Notes: generated from the sequence alone by a model not told the origin. Positions 8,614 to 54,114 are shown, numbered from the stretch's first letter. The stretch: 64,000 nt of DNA from an uncultured Candidatus Melainabacteria bacterium (GCA_947361615.1 CANAJP010000004.1:8216-72215), one strand, 5' to 3'. Translations and numbers: made by a program.

Positions 8614-9627
8614 CTATCTTAAAAAATTTTTTGCTTCCCTTATTTTTTCTTTACAAGCTGCTTTTTTATTTTTATAATGTTCTTTCTTTTTGCCTTGAGA
8701 TATTAAATATAGAAATTTATAACGCCAATATTTCAAAATATTTTCACGATATTTGAAAGTTATTTTTATTATTTCTGTATCATTCGGTGTTTTATTCAAT
8801 GGTAAATTTAGCACATCAGTGAATATTTTTTCATAAAATGGTGTTAATTTTGCATAATACCAAAAATATTCTCCATAACGTGAATTAAATGTTGTCCAGG
8901 GTTTTATTTTGTGGATGTAGTGCAAAATTTTATGGTTTGAAACCATTTGTTCCTTTTCTGCTTCATCTAAGACATTAAACCATTTTTCATAAACACAAGT
9001 TGCAGCATTCCAGCACCAATCAAGATATAAAACTTTATCTTTAAAAATAGCATTAAATAAATCCTGATCCGGGAATTTTAATTCCATTGTTGGTGCTAAT
9101 TCGATAGCTCTTTGTTCAAAGTTTATCTCTCTCCATTTATTGAGATTTGCATAAAACATTCCTGTATTGAAATATGGGTTTGTTTCAGGTGTACGGTGGC
9201 ATTTATACCATGCATCTTTTGCTGCAGCAATACAATAGTTGTCTATATTTATGCTCCAAAGCTCTGATAAATCACCGGTAACAATCATATCACCCTCTAG
9301 AATAATTGCGCGTTCTAGATTAGGAAAGAGCGACGAAATCATTAATTTCGCATAAACAATTTTAGAATCAATGTGAGTATTTACGCAGTAAGGAAGTTCA
9401 AAACTTAAACCTGCATTCAAGTATTTATATTCAATATCAAAATCGTAATGCCTTTTTAACATTTCTACTTTGTTAATTGTTTCTTGCCGAATATCTTCTG
9501 TCAAAATATGAAAGAATAGTTTATAATTTTTGTTAATATTTTCAAGCGCAGAAACGAGTAATACCGATACATACGGCATATATTTGTCAGAACTTGGAAT
9601 TATTATATCAATTATTTGCTGCTGCAT
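8614..9627 (-). CDS. GT8-family glycosyltransferase
   Basis: ILEGDMIVTGD (DxD region), NTGMFYANL and HYIHKIKPW motifs. Start set at the internal MQQQ, because the longer tracked ORF runs further into the upstream gene. Confidence 0.75.
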   Translation of the reverse strand: MQQQIIDIIIPSSDKYMPYVSVLLVSALENINKNYKLFFHILTEDIRQETINKVEMLKRHYDFDIEYKYLNAGLSFELPYCVNTHIDSKIVYAKLMISSLFPNLERAIILEGDMIVTGDLSELWSINIDNYCIAAAKDAWYKCHRTPETNPYFNTGMFYANLNKWREINFEQRAIELAPTMELKFPDQDLFNAIFKDKVLYLDWCWNAATCVYEKWFNVLDEAEKEQMVSNHKILHYIHKIKPWTTFNSRYGEYFWYYAKLTPFYEKIFTDVLNLPLNKTPNDTEIIKITFKYRENILKYWRYKFLYLISQGKKKEHYKNKKAACKEKIREAKNFLR

Positions 9628-10903
9628 ATTTTCCCTCTTTTTCAGCTGTATTTTTACCGTCCGCGAACGCCTGGTGAGTCCAAAAATATTCCCATTTCCC
9701 AAACCGTCCTATACTTTCTATTCCTATTGAGTTAAGATAATCAAGAATTATTTGACGGTTTTCATAGATATTGTGGTCAAAAATTATATTGGCATATTTT
9801 TCAAAACGAATATCTTTAATAATGATATCTTTTTCTTCACAAACGCCCATGTTAATTAGTTTTTCGATGGTATTTTTTATAACCTCATCGGCTGGTGGAA
9901 TTTTTGCCTTATTGGAAAAGAAAATTTCTGCTTGTAGAGAACTACATCCTTGAGGCACATTATCTGATGATTTTAGACTTGGAGAATAAACTCTGCTTGA
10001 CAAAATATCTTCATCATAGATATAAAACCAGAGATATTTTGCAATATCAGGTTTGTTAAACCCTAAGGAAACCATGTAACCGGAGGTATACATAAGATTT
10101 GCTGCCGCGGTTTTGATATTACTAGGAACATTGTCGAGCATTTTAATTATTTCAGGCAATGGCAAAGTAGAAATCAATCTTTCATATTTTGTTTCGCTTC
10201 CATCCTTGAAAAATACTTTACGGGAAGAGGTATCTATTTTAACAGCTTCTTTATTAAATTCTATATTTAACCCTTTGCGACATTTGTTTAAAATACTTCT
10301 AAATCCACCGGTTTTGGGGTATTTCATAACTTTTGAATAATAAAAACATTCGTCCTGAGTTTCAAATGCTCCGCGCAATACCTGTTTGATATCAGGGGTG
10401 TACATTCTTTGTCCGACCCATTTCGTTTCAAGTTCGCGTGCTTCTACTCCCCAGTATTTACGTGTATATTTAAACGGGAAATTCTCAGCAAAATAGTCAC
10501 CGTACTGCACTCTTAGCCATTCTTCATAGTTTTCGATTTCATCAATAGGTTTCATTTTTTTATTGATAAATCCGTCTATGATGTTAACTTTTTCTTCTAT
10601 AGAAAGTGGCGCAAGGTTATTCTGTGCGGGATGTCTTAGCCAGATGCCTTTGTAATAATTTGAAGGGAATGGAATGTGTTCCAACATTTCAGATGATTGC
10701 TTGAATAAGTTAACCGTATATTCATCCGGAGCAAAAGAAAAGTGGACAAATTTGTCAAAGCGAAAACCGTTTATTGTAAAATTTCCGCATAAACCACCCC
10801 AATCATTGTTTTTTTCATATATTATGACGGGTTCTTTTTCCAGATTTAAGTGATAGCCTGCTGATATACCTGCAATACCGCTTCCTAGAATTACTGTTCC
10901 CAT
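9608..10903 (-). CDS. FAD/NAD(P)-binding oxidoreductase (amine-oxidase / UDP-galactopyranose-mutase superfamily)
   Basis: N-terminal Rossmann motif VILGSGIAGISAGYHL...EKNNDWGGL. Lies inside the glycan operon. Confidence 0.65.
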   Translation of the reverse strand: MGTVILGSGIAGISAGYHLNLEKEPVIIYEKNNDWGGLCGNFTINGFRFDKFVHFSFAPDEYTVNLFKQSSEMLEHIPFPSNYYKGIWLRHPAQNNLAPLSIEEKVNIIDGFINKKMKPIDEIENYEEWLRVQYGDYFAENFPFKYTRKYWGVEARELETKWVGQRMYTPDIKQVLRGAFETQDECFYYSKVMKYPKTGGFRSILNKCRKGLNIEFNKEAVKIDTSSRKVFFKDGSETKYERLISTLPLPEIIKMLDNVPSNIKTAAANLMYTSGYMVSLGFNKPDIAKYLWFYIYDEDILSSRVYSPSLKSSDNVPQGCSSLQAEIFFSNKAKIPPADEVIKNTIEKLINMGVCEEKDIIIKDIRFEKYANIIFDHNIYENRQIILDYLNSIGIESIGRFGKWEYFWTHQAFADGKNTAEKEGKYAAANN

Positions 10904-39843: not shown

Positions 39844-40083
39844 ATGCAAAATTTGTACTATGAATTTGACAAGATGGTTGGACAGGTGATGGAGGTTAAA
39901 GACCTGAGTTTTACTCTTACAAGTGCGATGAAAGGATGTATCGCAGACTCGGCAGAAGCTTATTCGCTTCTTCCGGCTATGGAAATACTTAGCAATAAAA
40001 CTAATACTCTTTATGAAAAAGCAGAAGAATTTTCAACTAAAATGCTACAACAAGATTTGTGTGCCGACCATGATTCTATGTGA
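39844..40083 (+). CDS. 79-aa acidic helical protein, head-to-head with the RHH regulator
   Basis: GAGGTG RBS before the ATG at 39844. Its 3' end overlaps the convergent porin gene by 39 nt. Confidence 0.5.
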   Translation: MQNLYYEFDKMVGQVMEVKDLSFTLTSAMKGCIADSAEAYSLLPAMEILSNKTNTLYEKAEEFSTKMLQQDLCADHDSM

Positions 40084-41244
40084 GTCGTCGCGGCCCTGAT
40101 TCTGGCAGAAAATGTAGTTCAGGATAAGTTTTAAGCCCTGACCTTTGATAAAATAGTTGATACCTGCAGTGTATTCGCGGCGCAGGTTATGGGAAACATT
40201 TCTATCAGGATCAAATTGGTCAAACCTTGCTACAAGTTGGAGTTTTGGTGTGATTTTGTAGCCGACAGTTGTATAAAAACCGGATGATTGTCTATTGGTA
40301 TAGCCTGCGACACCGTTAGAGCCGTCTGCCTGTGCCCATTCAAAGTTCGCAAAAAATCTTTTGTATTCATAACCTGCGTAGGCGCCGGCTACGAAAAAAT
40401 CACCGCTTCCGTACTGACCGCCGTTGATACCGCCGCCAAGTTTTAATTTACCGTATCTGCCGTCGGTTTTGCCCAGTGGTTTTAGGTTCACCCAGCCTGT
40501 GAATTCAACGCCAGGCATGAATTTTCTGAAATATGTGTCAGAGCTGTAGCCGCCGAAGTCGTATTCTACTAAGTCGTAGTTTCCCTGAACCCTTAAACCG
40601 AATTTACGTACTGTACCGTAGGTTCGTGAAATTTGTGAACGGTTAACGAATGGGAGAGTGTAAGGGCTTTGACCGCCTTCCATACCAATAGGGGGACGGG
40701 AGTTCCCGAACATTACGCGGTGGTGTGGAATTCTGTTGGTCGCTACGTATAAATCCGCAGGAAGATTTTGCCAGAAGGTTCTGTTATGTACAGGGTTGAA
40801 GTTAAACATAAGGCGAAAATCTTCTTTGCCGCCGCGAAATTTACCGTCAATACCGACATTAAAGTGGCCCTCTGAGTAATCGACGGTTGTAGGTTGGTTG
40901 TGCCCCATAGAAACACCAACTTGTGGCAAGATTGAACCCCACAGATGAACGCTTTCAACGGGGCCTTTTTTTATCTTGAAAGTTGTCATTTCTGAAAGCA
41001 GATGATATGGAGTGTCTGTTTGGACGACTTCGGCTTTCAGTATATCGTGAACTTTTTCGGAAAATGTTTTTTCGTGCGGTATCTGGATATCTTCAACGCG
41101 AGGTGCTATTTCCTGAACCTGTTCGACTTCGCTTTCTAAGATTATGTCTTTAAGTTCAACAGGGGCAATTTCTGTTTCTTCGATTGCCTGTGCGGGTATA
41201 AATGATAATAAAATTAGTGTAAATATTAAAAAAATCTTTTTCAC
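40045..41244 (-). CDS. outer-membrane beta-barrel porin-like protein (phosphate-selective porin O/P-like)
   Basis: Signal peptide MKKIFLIFTLILLSFIPAQA. Alternating beta-strand pattern and an ARFDQFDPD segment. Confidence 0.5.
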   Translation of the reverse strand: MKKIFLIFTLILLSFIPAQAIEETEIAPVELKDIILESEVEQVQEIAPRVEDIQIPHEKTFSEKVHDILKAEVVQTDTPYHLLSEMTTFKIKKGPVESVHLWGSILPQVGVSMGHNQPTTVDYSEGHFNVGIDGKFRGGKEDFRLMFNFNPVHNRTFWQNLPADLYVATNRIPHHRVMFGNSRPPIGMEGGQSPYTLPFVNRSQISRTYGTVRKFGLRVQGNYDLVEYDFGGYSSDTYFRKFMPGVEFTGWVNLKPLGKTDGRYGKLKLGGGINGGQYGSGDFFVAGAYAGYEYKRFFANFEWAQADGSNGVAGYTNRQSSGFYTTVGYKITPKLQLVARFDQFDPDRNVSHNLRREYTAGINYFIKGQGLKLILNYIFCQNQGRDDSHRIMVGTQILL

Positions 41245-41268: not shown

Positions 41269-41292
41269 ATTCGCCCCTGAAACGGGGCGAAT
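41269..41292 (-). terminator. terminator after the Hyf-like operon
   Basis: ATTCGCCCC-tgaaac-GGGGCGAAT, a 9-bp stem. Confidence 0.65.
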
Positions 41293-41308: not shown

Positions 41309-42040
41309 TTACTTGACACCTAAATAATCAAGTATTCCATTGATTATTGTCAATGGGTGTGCAGGACAGCCCGGAATATATAAATCTACGGGATGTCTTT
41401 CAAAGAATGTTCTGTCGAGTTCTTCAGAGTCTTGAAAAACTCCGCCGGAAATTGCGCACGCACCTACTGCTATTACGATTCTTGGTTCTGGTGTTGAAAG
41501 GAATGTATCTTCCAGAGCTTTTGCCATATTTTTAGTAACAGGGCCTGTGATTACAACGCCATCAGCGTGGCGAGGGGAAGCTACAAAGTCAATACCGTAT
41601 CTGCCGATATCAAAGTTCGCGTTAGAGCAAGCGTTCAATTCCATTTCGCAGGAGTTGCAGCCGCCGGCTGAAACTTGGCGTAATTTCAATGATTGACCGA
41701 AAACTTTTGTAATTTCTTCTTTTGCGACAATCGGGTTGATTTCACCGTTAACGATTAAATCTTTGCGTTTTGTAGCGCTGTATTTGTGGTTACGGGTGAA
41801 TGTGATTGCACCGTTTGAAACACGCGCGCATTCGCCGCAGAAAGTACATTTGCCAAGGTCAATTTTTTTATCATTGGTAATTGCGCAGGTTGGGCAAGCC
41901 TTTTGACATTCTTCAAGGTTTGTTAGTTTTGCCTCGTCGATTTCCGGAATTCCGCGAAATCTTGGTTTAATCTCGCGGCCTCGTATGTCTTTTATTATTT
42001 GATTTTTTTGTAAGTGTACTGTTTTTAATGTTTTAAACAT
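41309..42040 (-). CDS. group-4 hydrogenase small-subunit/NuoB-like protein with a fused N-terminal ferredoxin-like segment
   Basis: N-terminal CQKACPTC...CTFCGEC. C-terminal GGCNSCEMEL, VASPRHADGVVITGPV, GACAISGG and IPGCPAHP. Confidence 0.8.
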   Translation of the reverse strand: MFKTLKTVHLQKNQIIKDIRGREIKPRFRGIPEIDEAKLTNLEECQKACPTCAITNDKKIDLGKCTFCGECARVSNGAITFTRNHKYSATKRKDLIVNGEINPIVAKEEITKVFGQSLKLRQVSAGGCNSCEMELNACSNANFDIGRYGIDFVASPRHADGVVITGPVTKNMAKALEDTFLSTPEPRIVIAVGACAISGGVFQDSEELDRTFFERHPVDLYIPGCPAHPLTIINGILDYLGVK

Positions 42041-42055
42041 GGTTGTTTCCTTTTA

Positions 42056-43489
42056 TTATAAGTCAAATCCACAATATGAAAGGTCAAAACTTTTGTTGCA
42101 GACAGGGAAGTCTGAAATCTGGTTGTTTCTGACAGCCAGCGCTAGGCCGAACCAGTTGTGGAATGATGGGTCTTTAATTTTGTATTGTTCGATAGCACCG
42201 GATTTATCGGTTGTGATTACGTGTTGAATTTCGCCTCTCCAGCCCTCTGTTAATGTAATACACATACTGTTTGGTGCGTATTCTTTTTTGATTTCAGGGG
42301 TTTCAAGGGTGCCGTCGAGTTCGTCAAGCATTTCAAGAATCAAGTCTTTTGATTGTTTGATTTCCAAAACTCTTTGATATGCTCTTGCCCAAACGTCACC
42401 ATTTTTTGCCGATACAGGTGTAAAATCTTTGTAGTCGTTATAAATACGGCTGTCAACGATTACGCCTGAAGCTCTTGCTGCAGGGCCGACCATACCGATT
42501 TCTTCTGCTTTTTTAGTAGAAACCATACCGGTATTTTCAAGTCTTGAGAGAACTGAAGCGTTTGCAAACATTGCGTCGCACATTTCTGTAACGCGGTTGT
42601 CAACTTCTTCTAACATTGAAACGACCTTGCCTTTGAGTTCTTCGTCAATATCAAAGTTTACGCCGCCTATTCTCATTAAACCTTTACCAAAACGGCTGCC
42701 TGAGATTTCAAGGAGTGTGTTAATAACTAAAGTTCTTGTAACACCCAGAACGTTTGCGGCCATAAGGTATGCAATATCGCCTGCAATTGCGCCGATGTCA
42801 CCGATATGAATTGCCATTCTTTCCATTTCGAGGGCAATTTTACGGATTGTTTGTGCACGGTTGCAAACTTTCATTCCGGAAAGCGCTTCCAGACCGCGGG
42901 CAAAAGTCATTGAGTGACCGATTGTTGTATCGCCGCAGAGTGATTCTGCAAGCCAGATATTCGGGTTCTTTTTAAGCATTTTTTCAACGCCTCGGTGCTG
43001 CCAGCCAAGTTGGATTTCAAGGTGCATTACGCGTTCGCCCTGACATAAAAATCTGAAGTGACCAGGTTCGATAATACCTGCGTGAACAGGTCCTACTGCA
43101 ACTTCGTGAGATTGTAAATCGTCTGATTTTAAGAATTCATAACCATCATTTACTCTAACAGGTTTCAAGAACGGGTGGCCTGCAGGGCGAATTCCGTAAT
43201 TTTCGTAAATTTCACGTTCAAACATGTGAACTGACGGACGTCTGAGGGTCAATGAAGGATATTCGTTTCCGACGATTGTTCCTACTATATGCAATTCTGC
43301 GTTTTTGTCGTCCGCTATAACTGCATATAAATTATTTCTATATTCTTCTTCCTTGTTGATGAACAAATTTGCTACGCGGTAGTGTGTGTCGCTGACCATA
43401 AGCATGAATTCGTTGAATTCAACAACAGGGATGTCTGATTTTTTTATTACTTCGTTATTTTTAAATTTTAGTGTCTTTGTCATTACCAT
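42056..43489 (-). CDS. group-4 [NiFe]-hydrogenase large-subunit homolog (NuoC-NuoD fusion type) lacking the Ni-Fe cysteine ligands
   Basis: GPVHAGIIEPGHFRF and LGWQHRGVEK motifs. The L1 motif reads ESLCGDTTIGHS (canonical R-x-C-G-x-C-x-x-x-H). The C-terminus reads SFDLSYCGFDL (canonical D-P-C-x-x-C). Confidence 0.8.
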   Translation of the reverse strand: MVMTKTLKFKNNEVIKKSDIPVVEFNEFMLMVSDTHYRVANLFINKEEEYRNNLYAVIADDKNAELHIVGTIVGNEYPSLTLRRPSVHMFEREIYENYGIRPAGHPFLKPVRVNDGYEFLKSDDLQSHEVAVGPVHAGIIEPGHFRFLCQGERVMHLEIQLGWQHRGVEKMLKKNPNIWLAESLCGDTTIGHSMTFARGLEALSGMKVCNRAQTIRKIALEMERMAIHIGDIGAIAGDIAYLMAANVLGVTRTLVINTLLEISGSRFGKGLMRIGGVNFDIDEELKGKVVSMLEEVDNRVTEMCDAMFANASVLSRLENTGMVSTKKAEEIGMVGPAARASGVIVDSRIYNDYKDFTPVSAKNGDVWARAYQRVLEIKQSKDLILEMLDELDGTLETPEIKKEYAPNSMCITLTEGWRGEIQHVITTDKSGAIEQYKIKDPSFHNWFGLALAVRNNQISDFPVCNKSFDLSYCGFDL

Positions 43490-44739
43490 ATTATACCACC
43501 TGCGTTTTTAATTAATTCAAATAAGCCGTTTGGCATATAAATACCAAGTACGATTGCCGTTACAATCAGGAATATTTGAGGTAAATAGTTGTTAAACGGT
43601 AATTTTACCGGCTGTGTTTCGGTGTTAGCGTCCTTGCTGTAGTCCATTTTTAAAACTGTACTCATAATACCGAAGAGAACAATTGTTAATAGAAGGACAA
43701 ATACGATGCACAAAATGTATTGCTGGTTGAGTAAGAATTGTTTAATGATTAAAAATTCTGACAGGAACAGCGGTGATGGCGGAATCGCAAGGATTAACAT
43801 TGCGCCCAGTAACCATAACCATGATGTGCATTTGTTTTTGTTTACAAGGTCTTTAACTTCTGCAACTTCTTTTGTGTTGTAAAGGTGCAGGATGTTGCCG
43901 GAGGTCAAGAATAATGAACTCTTAATCAATGAGTGAGAAAGCAGGTGAATTAATGCCCCGATTGTACCAAGGCTTCCGAGCGCAATACCTATTGCGATGA
44001 TACCCATATTTTCTACTGATGAATAAGCGAGCATTCTTTTGTAGTTCTTAATTTTGTATACATAAACTGCAGTGATGAAGATTGAAAGAAGTCCCATCGT
44101 AAGCATTAAAACTTGAACAGTGTGGCCTAAACCTGCAAGGCTCATAAGTTTTACGAGTCTTAGGATAACGAGAACCGCAGAGTTTAATAATGTTGCTGAT
44201 AACATTGCTGAAACCGGTGACGGAGCTTCTGCGTGCGCGTCAGGCAGCCAGCTGTGAACAGGTGCAAAACCCGCTTTTGTACCGAAACCGATTAAAATAA
44301 ATATAAATGATAATTTTAACCAGAATGGATTGATTGCTGTTGCGTTTGCGTACAAATCGTTGTAGAAAAGTGAATTTACGCTTCCTGAACCGATAAGTAA
44401 CAGGATTATACCTACAAACGCAAGTGAAATACCGATTGAGCAGAGGAATGTGTATTTCCAGGTCGCTTCAAGTGAGTTTTTAGACTTGTGAAGCATAATC
44501 AAATATGCACTTGTCAATGTAGTGGCTTCGACAAATACCCAGGTTAGACCTAAGTGGTTACTGAGTAGTGCGCCGACCATTGAAAGGAAAAACAGGAAGA
44601 ATATTGAATAATATCTCAAATTTTCCTTTGCACTTTTGCAGTAGTTGAACCCTTGATAAATCATTACGCAAACGGTTACAACCACGAGTGCAATTAAAAA
44701 TAATAAATTTAAACTGTCTAATATAAAATAATTATTCAT
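43483..44739 (-). CDS. antiporter-like membrane subunit (HyfF/NuoN-like)
   Basis: WLPDAHAEAPSPVSAMLSA motif; polytopic. Confidence 0.8.
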   Translation of the reverse strand: MNNYFILDSLNLLFLIALVVVTVCVMIYQGFNYCKSAKENLRYYSIFFLFFLSMVGALLSNHLGLTWVFVEATTLTSAYLIMLHKSKNSLEATWKYTFLCSIGISLAFVGIILLLIGSGSVNSLFYNDLYANATAINPFWLKLSFIFILIGFGTKAGFAPVHSWLPDAHAEAPSPVSAMLSATLLNSAVLVILRLVKLMSLAGLGHTVQVLMLTMGLLSIFITAVYVYKIKNYKRMLAYSSVENMGIIAIGIALGSLGTIGALIHLLSHSLIKSSLFLTSGNILHLYNTKEVAEVKDLVNKNKCTSWLWLLGAMLILAIPPSPLFLSEFLIIKQFLLNQQYILCIVFVLLLTIVLFGIMSTVLKMDYSKDANTETQPVKLPFNNYLPQIFLIVTAIVLGIYMPNGLFELIKNAGGIIW

Positions 44740-45442
44740 CTTTTGCCATCTCGCTATCTTTTAAATTACAAAGTTGTGAAACATCAGGGTTGCCGTAGAT
44801 ATGGCCGATTTCGCCAATCAACAGCCCCAGAATGAATACTGCAATAAATACGTCAAGTAATACCCCGAGGTTTACAATCAACGGCATTTCTTTTGCGATT
44901 GAAAGTGAAAGCAGGAATATACCGTTTTCCAACATCGCAAAACCGATTATGTGTGTTAAGAGTTTCTTTTTAATAGCGATGAATACAAACGCTGTTATGA
45001 TTGTTGAAACTGAAACGCCGAAGTATAGGCTTGAGATGTTTTGTAAAATATCAGCCTGACTGCTTGCGATGATGAAACCTGCAAACAGGATAATTGTTGA
45101 TATTACAAGTGTATAAAAGTTAGGGAATTGCGGGTTGTTATCCCTTTTGATGTTGTTTTTTTCAGCAACTCTATCCAAAACGTTAGGTATAATAAGCGCT
45201 TTGACAACGAAAGTTTCCAGAATTAGGAAAGTTGCGCCGACGAGTGCATCCACGTGTGTGAACAATGAGGTTATCGCTGCCCAGATGCTTGAGGTATCAA
45301 GTTCGTTGATGTGTGCAAATATTGTTATGATACAAAGGATTATACCTTGAAGTCTTAACATATTTGTCTGTGCTGCGATACGGCTTGAGGTTGCCATATA
45401 TAACATCGAAATCCCGAATATAACAATTAATAAGTTAATCAT
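44732..45442 (-). CDS. HyfE-like small membrane subunit
   Basis: 236-aa polytopic protein in the HyfE position of a hyf-type operon. Confidence 0.6.
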   Translation of the reverse strand: MINLLIVIFGISMLYMATSSRIAAQTNMLRLQGIILCIITIFAHINELDTSSIWAAITSLFTHVDALVGATFLILETFVVKALIIPNVLDRVAEKNNIKRDNNPQFPNFYTLVISTIILFAGFIIASSQADILQNISSLYFGVSVSTIITAFVFIAIKKKLLTHIIGFAMLENGIFLLSLSIAKEMPLIVNLGVLLDVFIAVFILGLLIGEIGHIYGNPDVSQLCNLKDSEMAKDE

Positions 45443-45443
45443 A

Positions 45444-46349
45444 TTACAAATGTCCTCCGTGCATAATTAATAGAACAAGTGCCATTACAATTAACGCTGC
45501 AACTATTAATGTAAAAGTATATTCTATTATGTGAGTTAATCTGATTCTAGCGCATAAAGATTCGATTATGCCGATAAGAACCGCGATAGCGAGAGCTACA
45601 AGTACAGAGCCGATGAAGCTTAACGGAGCGATTGTCATTGTGATGATTGTTGTGAACAACATCATTTTCAACGCTGAACCGTATTGGATAAACGCTAAAT
45701 CAACACCTGAGTTGTCAAGAACCATAACTTCGTGAATCATTGTTAACTCGAGGTGAGTTTTAGGGTCGTCAATCGGAACCCTTGAGCCTTCGATTAAAAT
45801 TATGAGGAATAATGCGCCGACTGTTGCAAGCGCGATTAAAATCATAATGTCATTGTTTGACCAGAAAAGGTGCGCTAGTGATGCAAATGAGTAAACACCG
45901 TTCAGTGCGCAGATTGATGAAATTATGATGAAGAATGCCGGTTCGATTAGAGATGTGTAGCTTACTTCTCTAGAAGCGCCCATTCCCTCAAAGCTTGAAC
46001 CTGTATCCATAGCCGCAACGACTGATACGAATTTACCTAAAGCAAGCAGGTATGAGAAAAGAATAAAATCTCCCTCAAAGTGGATTACGGTAACAAGCAT
46101 TGCCGCAACGATAAGGCAGGCAAGGTTGATAACCGGCGCAACTCTGAAGATTCCTGTTGCTGTTTCACTGATAACTTCGCCCTTGTTCATAAGTCTGTTG
46201 AAGTCAAAGTAAGGCTGGAATATGCTTGCGCCTTGTTTTCCGGCGAATTTTGCTTTTACTTTATTAATTATACCAATGAATAAAAATGGTAGCGATAAAA
46301 GTAATATCATTTTTAATATTGGAAAAATAATCATTGCTAGAATTATCAT
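45444..46349 (-). CDS. HycD/HyfC/NuoH-like membrane subunit
   Basis: EGSRVPIDDPKTHLELTMIHEVMVLDNSG motif. Start set at MIILAMII (TAATG junction with the upstream gene). Confidence 0.8.
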   Translation of the reverse strand: MIILAMIIFPILKMILLLSLPFLFIGIINKVKAKFAGKQGASIFQPYFDFNRLMNKGEVISETATGIFRVAPVINLACLIVAAMLVTVIHFEGDFILFSYLLALGKFVSVVAAMDTGSSFEGMGASREVSYTSLIEPAFFIIISSICALNGVYSFASLAHLFWSNNDIMILIALATVGALFLIILIEGSRVPIDDPKTHLELTMIHEVMVLDNSGVDLAFIQYGSALKMMLFTTIITMTIAPLSFIGSVLVALAIAVLIGIIESLCARIRLTHIIEYTFTLIVAALIVMALVLLIMHGGHL

Positions 46350-48304
46350 TATATTTTCCCTCCTAAAACTAAGCATATTGCGATGATTAAAGCAATGACG
46401 CCGTACCATAAGTATCTTTGAGTGTTACCGCTTTGAATCCAGTAGAATTTAGACAGTAAGTTTTCGTCAAATTTTACGAGCGGATTAATGATGTAGTATT
46501 CAAAGATATCATATATTTTAGATTTGAAAGAAGTTTTTTCAGGGAACAAGTCCTTGATTGGCTTGAATTCCATAACTCTTACGTAGAATGGGTTTAGGAA
46601 GCCCAGAAACGGTCTTGTGAAAGAAGTTGAAGTATATTGAACCTTCGCCGTTCCTTTATCGTAACCGCAGCCCCATGTGTTTCTGACAGTAACGGTTTTT
46701 CCTGAAAGACAAATTTTTCTGACTAAAAGCAATACGCAAATTGTTATTACTAATGTAATGTTGAAGAATGAAATCACAGTAAGGATTTCGACAGGGTAAA
46801 TGAACGGTACGAGTTCAGAAGTTGCGCCGCCGATGAGCAGTATTGAATACTGCGGGAATAAACCGATTAATGATAAAATCACAACCAGCAATACCATCGG
46901 TGCAACCATTGAGAGCGGAACATCAGATTTAACGTGTTCAGCATATTCAGTTCTCGGAGAACCTAAGAAAATTGTGCTGTAAGCGCTTGTAAAAGCCACC
47001 ATCGCGGTTGCACCGACAAACGCTAAACCTGCCATCGCAAGAATCATTACAGGAATTAATAAATAATTAGGAGTGTTGAAAGAGTTCAAAAATCCGTAGT
47101 AGATTAAAAATTCACTGATGAAACCGTTGAACGGAGGTAACGCACAGAGCGCCATTGAACCGATAAGGAAACAGAATGCAGTTTTTGGCATAACTTTAGC
47201 CAATCCGCCAAGTCTTTCCATATCTTTTGTATGAGTTTTATTGTAAACCGCGCCTGCCGCAAAGAACATAAGCGGTTTGAAGATTGCGTGGTTAATAATA
47301 TGCATAAAGCAGCCAAGGAAGCCAAGAGTTTTGAGGCCTACGTTGTGGTACGCAACGCCTAAAATTCCAAGTCCTAAAGCGAGAGTTATGATACCAATGT
47401 TTTCGATTGAAGAATACGCGAGCATTTTTTTGAAATCTCTTTGACCTACCGCGTAAAGAATTCCGAGCAATGCACTGATAAGTCCGATGGCAAGTATTGC
47501 ATAACCTATTGTTGCAGAAGGTTTGCCAAGTAATTGTGTCATTCTGAGAATTCCGTAAATCCCTGTTTTAATCATAACGCCTGACATTAAAGCTGAAATG
47601 TGGCTTGGAGCAACAGGGTGAGCTTTTGGAAGCCATGTGTGAATCGGTACGAGGCCTGCTTTGATACCGAATCCGATAAACATTAAGGTATAAATTAATG
47701 GAGTAACCTGACCGTTGAAGTCAAAGAACCATATACTTCCGGTTTTGATGTTCAAAAGAACGAAACCTGTTATTAAAAATAAAACCCCGATGTGCATAGT
47801 TACCAAGTAACGCATCGCGGTTTTTCTAACTCCTTGTTCGTCTGCATCGAAAAGCATTAATAGGAAAGAGCTGAAACTCATAATTTCCCAGGCGATTAAG
47901 AATGCAAATACATTTTGTGATAATACGACTAAAATCATTGAAACGACGAAAATGTTAAAACAGAAGTAGTGAGAATTAACGCTTTTACCAGCTTCAATGT
48001 ATTTAGCGAGGTATCCTTTGGAGTAAATCATAGCGAGTAGTGAAACTACCGCAATAATAGTAATGAAGAACGCTGACAATCCGTCGAGTGATAAAACAAC
48101 ATTAACCAGAGTGTTGCCGAACTCGAACATAACGTCTTCGTTAAAGCCCTGGCTGGTGAAACCGCCCAGAGTTCCGCCGAGGGCTAAGAGTGTGGCAATA
48201 GAGTTCAAGAAAATCAAATAGTTAGCTTTTTGGTTTTCTTTGAATAGATATTGCGTTGCCGCACCGAATAAATAAATAATTAGGGCTAGTACAATTAGTT
48301 TCAT
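46349..48304 (-). CDS. antiporter-like membrane subunit (HyfB/NuoL-like)
   Basis: WLPKAHPVAPSHISALMSG motif. Start set at MKLIVLALIIYL. Confidence 0.8.
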   Translation of the reverse strand: MKLIVLALIIYLFGAATQYLFKENQKANYLIFLNSIATLLALGGTLGGFTSQGFNEDVMFEFGNTLVNVVLSLDGLSAFFITIIAVVSLLAMIYSKGYLAKYIEAGKSVNSHYFCFNIFVVSMILVVLSQNVFAFLIAWEIMSFSSFLLMLFDADEQGVRKTAMRYLVTMHIGVLFLITGFVLLNIKTGSIWFFDFNGQVTPLIYTLMFIGFGIKAGLVPIHTWLPKAHPVAPSHISALMSGVMIKTGIYGILRMTQLLGKPSATIGYAILAIGLISALLGILYAVGQRDFKKMLAYSSIENIGIITLALGLGILGVAYHNVGLKTLGFLGCFMHIINHAIFKPLMFFAAGAVYNKTHTKDMERLGGLAKVMPKTAFCFLIGSMALCALPPFNGFISEFLIYYGFLNSFNTPNYLLIPVMILAMAGLAFVGATAMVAFTSAYSTIFLGSPRTEYAEHVKSDVPLSMVAPMVLLVVILSLIGLFPQYSILLIGGATSELVPFIYPVEILTVISFFNITLVITICVLLLVRKICLSGKTVTVRNTWGCGYDKGTAKVQYTSTSFTRPFLGFLNPFYVRVMEFKPIKDLFPEKTSFKSKIYDIFEYYIINPLVKFDENLLSKFYWIQSGNTQRYLWYGVIALIIAICLVLGGKI

Positions 48305-48509
48305 ATTTTCTAATATTCCTATCTCTCTTGTTTCAACATCAAATAATACTCCGTAAAGTATAGATTTCAAGCGGAAATTAGAAAACGGGTTCATATTTTT
48401 AACAAAAGGCGAAATGCCTAGTGTAAGAATAGTTTCCGTTGGTTTTATGTGCGTTGCCATCCCGTACTTGGTCGACTGAGTCGACGGCTATAATTGAACC
48501 CACATTTTA

Positions 48510-48557
48510 TTATACGTCTTTAATTATTTCGTTAATATCAACATTGAATGCTTTTGC
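48510..48557 (-). pseudogene. 3' fragment of an XRE-family gene
   Basis: Minus-strand frame encodes AKAFNVDINEIIKDV-stop. Compare ARELGVNINELTKDV-stop at the end of 48816-49031. No N-terminal part is present. Confidence 0.5.
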
Positions 48558-48787
48558 TATTCAAAAAGTTCTTTTATATTAATATTAAGTGCTTTTGCTA
48601 ATCTTTTAGCTGTTGAGATAGTTGTATCTGTTACGCCGCGTTCAATAGCACTCAAATAACTGGGAGATATATTTACCTTAAAGGCAAGTTCGTCTTGGGT
48701 AAGGTTTGCGTTTTTTCGCAAAAAGACGATTTTTTGGCCAAATTTTTTTGTTAATATTTTATCATATTTAAATGCTCGTTTGCCCAT
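48557..48787 (-). CDS. XRE-family HTH regulator (76 aa)
   Basis: LTQDELAFKVNISPSYLSAIERG HTH. Confidence 0.85.
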   Translation of the reverse strand: MGKRAFKYDKILTKKFGQKIVFLRKNANLTQDELAFKVNISPSYLSAIERGVTDTTISTAKRLAKALNINIKELFE

Positions 48788-48815
48788 TATGTCTTTAATG
48801 TACTTTCATTATAAG

Positions 48816-49031
48816 TTATACGTCTTTGGTCAATTCGTTAATATTTACACCTAGTTCACGAGCAATATCAATGATAGTCAGAACATATGTTTCTGTTTTA
48901 CCTGTTTCTATATTGCTGATAGTATCACAAGAAACATTTACCATTTCTGCAAGCTTTTCTTGTGATAAATCTTTTTTCATTCTAGCAAATTTTATGTTTA
49001 ATCCAAGGTTTTTTAATCGTGTATTTTTCAT
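48816..49031 (-). CDS. XRE-family HTH regulator (71 aa)
   Basis: LSQEKLAEMVNVSCDTISNIETG HTH. Confidence 0.85.
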   Translation of the reverse strand: MKNTRLKNLGLNIKFARMKKDLSQEKLAEMVNVSCDTISNIETGKTETYVLTIIDIARELGVNINELTKDV

Positions 49032-49165
49032 TGCTCAATTTTAATATCTTGACAAAAGTCTTACCATGGTATATGCTCAGTTTATCCGGAATGCGTTTCG
49101 GATAATAAGTATATTTTCCATAAATTTTTAAAGTATTCGGCAAGGATGGTGTGATTATGTAAGAT

Positions 49166-49372
49166 TTATTTATCCGGCCAGTATTTAAAAATATCGTTTG
49201 TGTCGCATTCTAGCGCATAACAAAGTTTTTCTAGAGTGTTTAATTCTATACGCGTGATTTTATCGTCATAAATCTTCTTGACCGTGTGGTTATCTAAACC
49301 CGTAATCTTTACGATATCTCTTCTGTCTAATCTCTTCTCGCCCAAGAGTTTTGAAAATCTATTTTCTAACAT
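49166..49372 (-). CDS. XRE-family HTH regulator (68 aa)
   Basis: From the internal ATG: MLENRFSKLLGEKRLDRRDIVKITGLDNHTVKKIYDD. The upstream part of the tracked ORF looks non-coding. Confidence 0.7.
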   Translation of the reverse strand: MLENRFSKLLGEKRLDRRDIVKITGLDNHTVKKIYDDKITRIELNTLEKLCYALECDTNDIFKYWPDK

Positions 49373-49593
49373 ATTAATATAATAACGTATAGGTAAAAAT
49401 AAATCCTTGCTGGTAGTTATAATAACCAGTTGGAGAATTGACATACCAGCAAAAGTAATATATCGTAATTCATGTAAGGAGTTGCGAATGGAAGTACAAA
49501 AATTTAGCATAACAAACACACGAATTTTTACCCCCATTTACCCTTTTTATGTTATACTTTTTTCATAATTTATATTATAAGAGGGAATTTGAT

Positions 49594-53118: not shown

Positions 53119-53226
53119 AAAACATTAACCCTTTACCTATATATAAAGTATTTTGCGTGTAAAAAATTGCTTGTTGCAAATAATTTTTCACGATATAGAA
53201 TATCCGTGAAAGGAGATTTACATAAA

Positions 53227-54114
53227 ATGAGTGAAGTAAGAAAAGAATACACAGCAAGCGACTGTGTTACCCCATCATCCGTTGCCGAAAATATTTGTAA
53301 TAACGTTATGCCCGCAAAAGCAAGCTATGGTAAAATAAAAACTTTAGTTTTAAGTATTGCTGCCGGTGCATTTATTGCATTCGGTGCGCAAGTATCATTA
53401 ACTGTTACAACAGGTTCCGCTGATGTTTTAGGTTTTGGTTTAACAAAACTTCTGGGAGGCCTTGTTTTCGCAGCAGGTTTGATTATGGTAGTTCTTTCAG
53501 GTGCAGAACTATTTACAGGTAACGTTATGATGGCGTTCTCTGTTATCGAAAAGAAAATCAGTTCCTGGCAATTGCTTAGAAACTGGGGTATTGTTTACTT
53601 TGGAAACCTTTTAGGTTCATTGCTTGTTGCTGGTTTGATTTATGCAACAGGATTATGCCACAACTCTCACGAAGAATTGGGCGCATTGGCTATCAATACA
53701 GCATATATGAAGTGTAACCTTACATTCGTTGAAGCGTTTGTAAGAGGTATTCTTTGTAACTGGTTAGTTTGTATGGCTATCTGGATGGCATTTTCAGCAA
53801 AAACTGTTATCGGTAAAATTTTTGCGATTGTGTTCCCTATCACAACATTCTGTGCATCAGGTTATGAACACAGTATTGCAAATATGTTCTTTATTACTAA
53901 CGGTTTGGTTGAAAAATCATCAGAAACTATTGCAGCGGCTTCAATGCTTTCAGCAGATCAGCTTGCAACATTGAACTTAAAATCATTCTTGCTTGGCAAC
54001 CTTGTTCCGGTAACCCTTGGTAATGTTGTCGGTGCGATTGTATTTATCGTGTTGTTATTCTGGACAGCTTACTTAAGACCTGACCACCATAATACAAAAG
54101 AAAATAACAATTAA
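53227..54114 (+). CDS. formate/nitrite transporter family channel (FocA/NirC-like)
   Basis: AGGAG RBS before the ATG at 53227. GAELFTGN, LCNWLVCMA and YEHSIANMF motifs. Confidence 0.88.
   Translation: MSEVRKEYTASDCVTPSSVAENICNNVMPAKASYGKIKTLVLSIAAGAFIAFGAQVSLTVTTGSADVLGFGLTKLLGGLVFAAGLIMVVLSGAELFTGNVMMAFSVIEKKISSWQLLRNWGIVYFGNLLGSLLVAGLIYATGLCHNSHEELGALAINTAYMKCNLTFVEAFVRGILCNWLVCMAIWMAFSAKTVIGKIFAIVFPITTFCASGYEHSIANMFFITNGLVEKSSETIAAASMLSADQLATLNLKSFLLGNLVPVTLGNVVGAIVFIVLLFWTAYLRPDHHNTKENNN

Follow-up and report, generated by a model that had tools for sequence, protein, structure and literature searches.

A predicted Ehr-type six-subunit membrane complex without [NiFe] ligands in a hydrogenase-free gut melainabacterium

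The window analysed here, a stretch of 64,000 nt taken as a whole (GCA_947361615.1 CANAJP010000004.1:8216-72215), comes from an uncultured Candidatus Melainabacteria bacterium, a Gastranaerophilus-type gut melainabacterium, and carries on its minus strand (48304-41309) six head-to-tail open reading frames (ORFs) for HyfB-like, HycD/NuoH-like, HyfE-like and HyfF-like subunits followed by a large and a small subunit. Our data indicate that this operon almost certainly encodes a six-subunit non-hydrogenase that is related to the Hyf/Hyc/Mbh group 4 membrane hydrogenases and belongs to the Ehr (Ech- or energy-converting-hydrogenase-related) type. The most economical reading, which we consider probable, is that the complex is a ferredoxin-linked, ion-translocating oxidoreductase with a predicted second substrate. 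The six subunits were identified by Pfam, NCBIfam and tblastn with E. coli proteins, the large and the small one also by phmmer against the PDB, and the hyf/hyc-type gene order recognised in a first-pass annotation follows from the ORFs and their Pfam and NCBIfam matches. The same annotation had proposed an Ehr-type complex, a view supported by the group 4 set and order of subunits, the missing [NiFe] ligands, the retained proximal cysteines and the absence of maturation genes.

The large subunit, EhrL, has its best PDB sequence matches by phmmer in MbhL (6CFW_L, 3e-44) and then E. coli HycE (7Z0S_E, 2e-37), MbsL being weaker (1.7e-17), and it is 27% identical to E. coli HyfG in tblastn. Its motifs are AESLCGDTTIGHS and NKSFDLSYCGFDL-stop. 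The ligand positions were placed by phmmer against the PDB and by a MAFFT alignment with E. coli HycE, HyfG and NuoCD, in which the HycE ligands C241, C244, C531 and C534 correspond to EhrL C185, T188, S471 and G474, so that three of the four Ni-Fe ligand positions are substituted; a further cysteine, C473, sits one residue ahead of the fourth position. The first-pass annotation had reached this result by hand alignment, which proved correct, and the canonical set of four cysteines is absent. The motifs of group 4 [NiFe] hydrogenases, L1 (RxCGxCxxxH) and L2 (DPCxxCxx(H/R)) with four metal-binding cysteines, are not found in EhrL, which reads ESLCGDTTIGHS at L1 and FDLSYCGFDL at L2. Unlike HycE, which extends beyond its last ligand with a tail that is removed by HycI, EhrL ends three residues past the last ligand position and has no C-terminal maturation tail. 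Since the ligands are lost, the complex should be unable to bind a Ni-Fe centre and therefore neither make nor consume H2.

A scan of a genome collection gave a family set of 70 related loci from several phyla, in which the L1 region of EhrL reads [A/S]ES[I/V/L]-x-GD[S/T] and the C-terminus NKSF[N/D]LSY-x-G[N/F/H]DL. Residue 185, the x of the first motif, is Cys in 45 of the 70 sequences, Ala in 10, Thr in 8, Asn in 4 and Ser in 3; for residue 473, the x of the second, the counts are Cys 43, Ser 20 and Ala 6. The two leftover cysteines thus vary across the family and are dispensable, the polar motif around them being invariant; a new metal site formed by C185 and C473 was considered and rejected, as neither residue is conserved. 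The invariant residues comprise H136, E141, H144, C149, G186-D187-(S/T) and N465-K466-S467-F468...S471-Y472-x-G474-x-D476-L477, of which E141 is the proton-gate Glu of hydrogenases, equivalent to MbhL E21. The family-specific C149 (GHFRFxCxGE) is kept in all 70 sequences and C464 (DFPxCNKSF) in 66; at these positions, which are not Ni-Fe ligands, MbhL and HycE carry L/V and A/I. The idea that C149 and C464 form an essential disulfide pair is weakened, since C464 is replaced by I or N in three natural relatives and C149 is invariant. An AF2 model of EhrL built with 37 family members (pLDDT 88.5, pTM 0.91) is of low confidence in two places only, residues 135-142 of the beta1-beta2 loop and the five C-terminal residues. 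Among PDB folds it matches HycE best (7z0s_E; E=8.5e-29, TMq 0.87) and E. coli NuoCD next (TMq 0.8-0.84), with MbhL lower.

The architecture and fold, which are those of the formate hydrogenlyase hydrogenase, and the retained proton-gate Glu could be taken as signs of a genuine hydrogenase that evolves H2 at an unusual metal site, and Soo et al. have reported a 'NiFe hydrogenase' in koala-gut Gastranaerophilales. Such an enzyme is hardly credible in view of the three replaced ligands, the fourth not being conserved in the family, and of the genome content, and we have rejected it. In the assembly containing the window (1.83 Mb, 95.6% complete), tblastn with E. coli queries found no HypA-E, HycI, HycH, HyfJ, HycB/HyfA or NuoE/F, and HypF gave only a partial match of 140 residues at 36 bits against a cut-off of 466. 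The genome likewise has no HypD, no second PF00346 locus, no [FeFe] hydrogenase, no other [NiFe] hydrogenase and no Rnf, and it contains no molybdopterin oxidoreductase and hence no formate dehydrogenase. What had been noticed as missing from the window (hyp genes, an endopeptidase, a formate dehydrogenase, a HycF/HyfH of its own) is missing from the whole genome. The absence extends further for HypD and any above-cut-off [NiFe] hydrogenase, which are missing from 8/8 genomes of the genus, and for HypD in the order, where none of the 151 genomes sampled has it. A coupling of the formate hydrogenlyase type, or of the type proposed for formate dehydrogenase (FDH)-Ehr complexes, was rejected for this genome, there being neither a molybdopterin oxidoreductase nor NuoE/F.

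The small subunit, EhrS, consists of a NuoB-type domain at residues 128-238 (Oxidored_q6, 4.8e-29) and an N-terminal part, residues 1-100, that corresponds to the first half of HyfH/HycF/NuoI. It matches MbhJ (2e-29) and HycG (9e-26) in the PDB, and with its N-terminus MbsN and HycF, while tblastn aligned it with residues 1-113 of E. coli HyfH (E=7e-8) and with HyfI (37% identity, E=8e-25). The proximal-cluster motif CxxC...C...CP is represented by C128, C131, C195 and C225, with a CxxC of the hydrogenase type (GGCNSCE), and all four cysteines are present in 58 of 67 small subunits, every Gastranaerophilales copy included, in line with the intact [4Fe-4S] ligands first noticed for this domain. 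The fused ferredoxin-like N-terminus had been described with six cysteines. The fusion is confirmed, but only C49, C65, C68 and C71 are invariant (67/67) and C45 and C52 are not, which suggests one [4Fe-4S] cluster and not two. In MbsN the medial cluster is held by C71, C96, C99 and C102 (PMC8165549), and the four cysteines kept in EhrS, of which one is the fourth of ferredoxin motif 1 and the others are the leading three of motif 2, make up the same ligand set. From this agreement the cluster retained in the N-terminus of EhrS appears to be the counterpart of the medial cluster of MBS, the distal cluster having been lost.

The membrane subunits keep the Lys, Glu and His residues that are common to HyfB, HycC, HyfF and HyfC. 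In EhrA the charged residues shared with HyfB are E140, K215, K246, K343, K370 and E398, in EhrB the acidic residues shared with HyfC/HycD are E148, E156, E207, E221 and E227, and in EhrD E71, K155, K234 and K273 are conserved. All six genes are under purifying selection, with ratios of nonsynonymous to synonymous substitution rates (dN/dS) of 0.03-0.08 against two congeners, at a dS near saturation, and of 0.06-0.08 for EhrL. The same six-gene order is found in about 65 of the 70 related loci, the position of EhrC being unchanged across them. A conserved partner gene beside the operon was looked for in the 70 loci and none was found, no further neighbour being conserved with the operon beyond close relatives; the likeliest partner of this six-gene unit is therefore a soluble carrier.

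As judged from sequence, the complex appears to have kept a two-cluster wire, an invariant polar pocket at the former metal site and a complete, conserved ion-translocation arm. A mechanism can be proposed for which we see slightly more than an even chance. Reduced ferredoxin would be supplied by two four-subunit 2-oxoacid:ferredoxin oxidoreductases (VorB/OFOR-type), which a search of the genome for electron-donor modules brought up, with no Rnf, formate dehydrogenase or NuoE/F among the results. It would dock on EhrS, from where electrons would pass by way of the medial [4Fe-4S] cluster of the HyfH-like domain and then the proximal NuoB-type [4Fe-4S] cluster to the remodelled pocket of EhrL (H136, E141, H144, C149, GD[S/T], NKSF...SYxGxDL). 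An acceptor would be reduced there, and the reaction would power the export of H+ or Na+, with the NuoH-like anchor and both antiporter-like subunits as the route. In this scheme we infer that ferredoxin is the partner, which way the electrons flow, which ion is coupled and that a second substrate exists. It is tempting to go further and suggest, as a tentative proposal, that the complex is the sole membrane-bound re-oxidiser of ferredoxin in the hydrogenase-free Gastranaerophilus, pumping ions by a new pocket chemistry with an acceptor that is neither a quinone nor the proton.

The distribution of hydrogenases in the order bears on the direction of electron flow. A [FeFe] hydrogenase occurs in 139 of the 151 sampled genomes and in none of the genus, all members of which were searched. 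Ten of the 12 genomes lacking it, from at least four genera, clearly carry an Ehr large subunit of about 480-500 aa; the remaining two have a completeness of 66% and 82%, and in the second the match is only fragmentary. Within the taxonomic family, 8/8 relatives without [FeFe] hydrogenase carry Ehr, as against about one quarter of those that retain it. Di Rienzi et al. 2013 proposed for Melainabacteria the reverse operation (PMC3787301), in which an ion gradient drives electrons uphill to ferredoxin for biosynthetic 2-oxoacid synthases. This is compatible with several traits of the genome, as the two VorB/OFOR-type enzymes could run reductively, pyruvate formate-lyase, which is encoded, can carry the main pyruvate flux in place of a pyruvate:ferredoxin enzyme, and there is no Rnf from which reduced ferredoxin could come. 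We nevertheless regard it as improbable. That Ehr is kept where the [FeFe] hydrogenase, a consumer of ferredoxin, was lost is easier to reconcile with a sink for ferredoxin than with a source, and an electron donor for the reverse reaction was no more identified than an acceptor for the forward one.

Several points weigh against a ferredoxin-driven oxidoreductase. Neither the genome content nor the loci gave an electron acceptor that can be named, and no NAD- or flavin-binding module is present in or near the operon. The relatives in which Ehr is retained and [FeFe] hydrogenase lost come from few related lineages and are not independent, so that this association is a lead and not a statistical proof. 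Nine loci labelled Bacteroidota have D-C-D/E-N in place of the proximal ligands, having lost three of the four cysteines, and still keep the operon, the one-cluster N-terminal motif and the signature of the large subunit; the pocket may thus serve a role free of electrons. The quinone ligands of complex I are missing from EhrL, and searches of the genome for MenB, cytochrome bd and fumarate reductase were negative, NadB being its one full FAD_binding_2 protein.

The Bacteroidota-labelled copies, together with the failure to find an acceptor, a quinone pathway or an input module, would suit a redox-independent cation transporter of the Mrp-like kind, with the peripheral arm as a structural cap or redox sensor. 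We consider such a transporter unlikely, because none of the eight Fe-S cysteines varies in any Gastranaerophilales copy or in any of the 58 copies outside these nine loci, selection on the large and small subunits is as strong as on the membrane subunits, and both the proton-gate E141 and the polar pocket are invariant. Moreover, the complex has been kept where [FeFe] hydrogenase was lost. The nine loci (L059, L061, L063, L066, L067, L068, L070, L071 and L074, each with its small-subunit gene at about 9500-10500) are labelled Draconibacterium, Prolixibacteraceae, Rikenellaceae and others, and most have two HyfB-like genes. In two loci the Ehr genes have at their side a further Ehr-like set, partial or complete, which is in tandem in a Draconibacterium metagenome-assembled genome (MAG; L071:10389-15392) and convergent in a Rhodoferax MAG (L072:2909-6729).

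In complex I, H38 and Y87 of Nqo4 are the quinone ligands and NuoB holds cluster N2 by a tandem Cys-Cys pair. Homology to the complex I Q-module would allow a ferredoxin:quinone oxidoreductase, similar to cyanobacterial NDH-1 or to complex I minus its NADH module, and the genome has one UbiA-family prenyltransferase with weak similarity to MenA (96.8 bits against a cut-off of 264). This function is very improbable, however, and was largely rejected: H38 aligns with I140 and Y87 with G186 of EhrL, the small subunit has the CxxC of hydrogenases and not the tandem pair of NuoB (PMC8165549), the genome, as noted above, lacks MenB, cytochrome bd and fumarate reductase, the UbiA protein is far below the MenA cut-off, and published work on gut Melainabacteria reports no quinones (PMC3787301). 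Complex-I-type NuoD is found in other families of the order and not in the host genus. The UbiA-family gene, a lone one, lies next to fliR (C9:22000-22719; L076:1330-2286).

Ehr complexes have reportedly been surveyed by Marreiros et al. in 2013 (BBA 1827:198), a work cited by Di Rienzi et al. 2013. They were named for the Geobacter sulfurreducens genes GSU0739-0745 (EhrA-1, C, L, S and others), the name being credited to Coppi and co-workers (PMC7894505), and the Nitrospira and Geobacter papers describe their function as unknown. For gut Melainabacteria, Di Rienzi et al. 2013 described a six-subunit, motif-less "NiFe hydrogenase" of the present operon type (PMC3787301). Ehr complexes were found in four Melainabacteria by Matheus Carnevali et al. 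2019, who placed such sequences in their Ehr clade (PMC6349859). Antiporter-like, NuoH-like, HyfE-like, large and small subunits are common to the known Ehr complexes and the one analysed here, as are an EhrL without the [NiFe] cysteines, a retained small-subunit cluster and the absence of maturation genes. By its published description, which is the basis of this comparison, Geobacter Ehr has seven genes (PMC7894505), whereas in the melainabacterial operon each type of antiporter-like gene occurs once. Other hydrogenases accompany Ehr in Geobacter, Nitrospira and Riflemargulisbacteria, in contrast to the melainabacterial genus, which has none. The FDH-Ehr proposed for Margulisbacteria and Saganbacteria differs by its FdhA/NuoEF genes, of which there are none near the operon.

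With E. coli hydrogenase 4 (HyfABCDEFGHI) and the hydrogenase 3 of formate hydrogenlyase (HycBCDEFG; 7Z0S) the operon shares the order B-C-E-F-G-(H)I at subunit identities of 27-37%, the HycE fold, an EPGHFR motif with the proton-gate Glu and a proximal cluster of the CxxC type. It differs from them in lacking HyfA/HycB, HyfD and HyfJ/HycH, in having HyfH cut to one cluster and fused to HyfI, in the replacement of C244, C531 and C534, and in the absence of a maturation tail, Hyp proteins, HycI and formate dehydrogenase. MBH (6CFW) and MBS/Mbx (6U8Y) of Pyrococcus furiosus are ferredoxin-oxidising ion pumps with a NuoB/NuoD/NuoH-like core, which the Ehr complex shares, but in both of them the NuoI-like subunit is separate and has two clusters, where the Ehr complex has one fused cluster, and an Mrp module is present; MBH has a full Ni-Fe site. 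MBS provides a precedent for a hydrogenase relative that has lost the Ni-Fe site and is still a redox-driven pump with vestigial cysteines. Its proximal cluster has three cysteines and is proposed to be the catalytic centre, two vestigial Ni-Fe cysteines are conserved, and it has 13 subunits including the Mrp module (PMC8165549); the Ehr complex, with four proximal cysteines, vestigial cysteines that are not conserved and only six genes, is not of the MBS/Mbx kind. The fold, the L-shaped core and the antiporter-like pumps are also shared with the Q-module of complex I/NDH-1 (NuoB, NuoCD, NuoH). Apart from the missing quinone-binding His and Tyr and tandem CC of N2, the operon differs from complex I in having no genes for NuoA, J, K, I, E, F or G and is short of the 11-14 subunit set, and no quinone pathway is recognisable in the genome.

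The coordinates of the operon and the surrounding features are given in Table 1. The NCBIfam HyfB match covers residues 53-697 of a longer ORF, and because it begins at residue 53 the ATG at 48304 is the likely start of EhrA, the start that the first-pass annotation had chosen; in tblastn EhrA is 32.5% identical to E. coli HyfB over residues 1-665 (E=5e-102). The true start of EhrB is likely the ATG at 46349, in which case the HyfB-like and NuoH-like genes have a 1-nt stop/start overlap. The NuoH-like and HyfE-like genes abut, the HyfE-like and HyfF-like genes overlap by 8 nt and the HyfF-like and large-subunit genes by 7 nt, and a gap of 15 nt separates the large- and small-subunit genes. The six genes are translationally coupled.

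Table 1. Operon genes and neighbouring features, in coordinates of the window
Feature	Coordinates	Strand	Evidence or remark
EhrA, HyfB-like antiporter-type membrane subunit	46349..48304	-	651 aa from ATG at 48304; NCBIfam HyfB E=6.5e-160
EhrB, HycD-HyfC/NuoH-like membrane anchor	45444..46409	-	Pfam NADHdh E=9.8e-21; E. coli HyfC E=1.7e-26
EhrC, HyfE-like small membrane subunit	44732..45442	-	NCBIfam 'hydrogenase 4 membrane subunit' E=8.4e-15
EhrD, HyfF-like antiporter-type membrane subunit	43483..44739	-	NCBIfam HyfF E=1.4e-93; E. coli HyfF 35.6% identity, E=1.2e-74
EhrL, large subunit, NuoC-NuoD fusion, HycE-like fold, without [NiFe] site	42056..43489	-	477 aa; Pfam; PDB phmmer
EhrS, small subunit	41309..42040	-	243 aa; truncated HyfH/HycF/NuoI-like N-terminus fused to NuoB/HycG-like domain
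Promoter-like site TTGAAA-16-TATTAT	48343..48370	-	Consensus scan and sequence; ~40 nt upstream of the first gene's ATG
Terminator-like GC hairpin CGCCCC-gtttca-GGGGCG	41272..41289	-	Read from sequence; between small-subunit stop and porin gene
Porin O/P-like outer-membrane protein	40045..41244	-	Pfam Porin_O_P E=5.6e-10; neighbour, not core part
Three small XRE-type regulator genes	48557-49537		Upstream of operon
Formate/nitrite (FNT) channel gene	53167-54114		

The promoter-like site is a pattern match only, and such sites are no commoner in the region than in shuffled sequence. The hairpin behind the small-subunit gene has a weak T tail and was not called by the consensus scan, and read-through into the porin gene is therefore possible. 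The porin, the three XRE regulators and the FNT channel that had been pointed out as context are indeed present, but they are not conserved with the operon beyond close relatives. The porin lies directly downstream on the same strand in 8 of the 70 related loci and nearby in two more. The XRE array varies within the genus, with no gene, one xre2-like or one xre3-like gene between the operon and a divergent methionyl-tRNA synthetase gene. The pyruvate formate-lyase of the genome, which has no formate dehydrogenase, explains the FNT channel better than a link to the Ehr complex does. Between the last XRE gene and the promoter-like site there is an inverted repeat, GTCGACTCAGTCGAC, at 48465-48490, which could be a terminator or an operator.

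The loci closest to the operon are those of Candidatus Gastranaerophilus phascolarctosicola Zag_221 (89%) and of other Gastranaerophilales/Melainabacteria MAGs. The Gastranaerophilales-type operon (49-97% identity) was also seen in MAGs labelled Fusobacterium, Muribaculaceae, Clostridium and Gammaproteobacteria (L006, L012, L016, L019, L033, L034, L037 and L044), labels that are probably errors of taxonomy or binning.

The Ehr complex is already known as a kind, also in gut Melainabacteria. What we add is the signature motifs of the large subunit, the identity of the medial cluster as it appears from the ligand pattern, the absence of maturation genes across genome, genus and order, and the retention of Ehr in all sampled, adequately complete relatives without [FeFe] hydrogenase. 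The family is very widespread, more than 8000 protein clusters matching at E<=1e-40. A second homology search, started from a distant family member, gave proteins with no name or a generic one and no entry named Ehr. The names under which public databases list Ehr complexes are at best misleading ('NADH-quinone oxidoreductase subunit C') or wrong ('Ni,Fe-hydrogenase III large subunit'). The present genome offers an unusually clean background, in which hydrogenase, Rnf, quinone pathway and formate dehydrogenase are absent and ferredoxin-producing enzymes are present, and this reduces the number of hypotheses to be considered. A six-gene operon with Fe-S clusters only needs no Hyp maturation and is therefore practical for heterologous expression.

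The Zag_221 copy has the same CGDT and DLSYCG motifs, and since its genus has no other [NiFe] hydrogenase, the 'NiFe hydrogenase' reported by Soo et al. for koala-gut Gastranaerophilales is probably an Ehr non-hydrogenase. If so, the genus is unlikely to be a producer of H2. Should the complex prove to be the sole membrane re-oxidiser of ferredoxin tentatively proposed above, it would represent a minimal, previously uncharacterised anaerobic respiratory enzyme.

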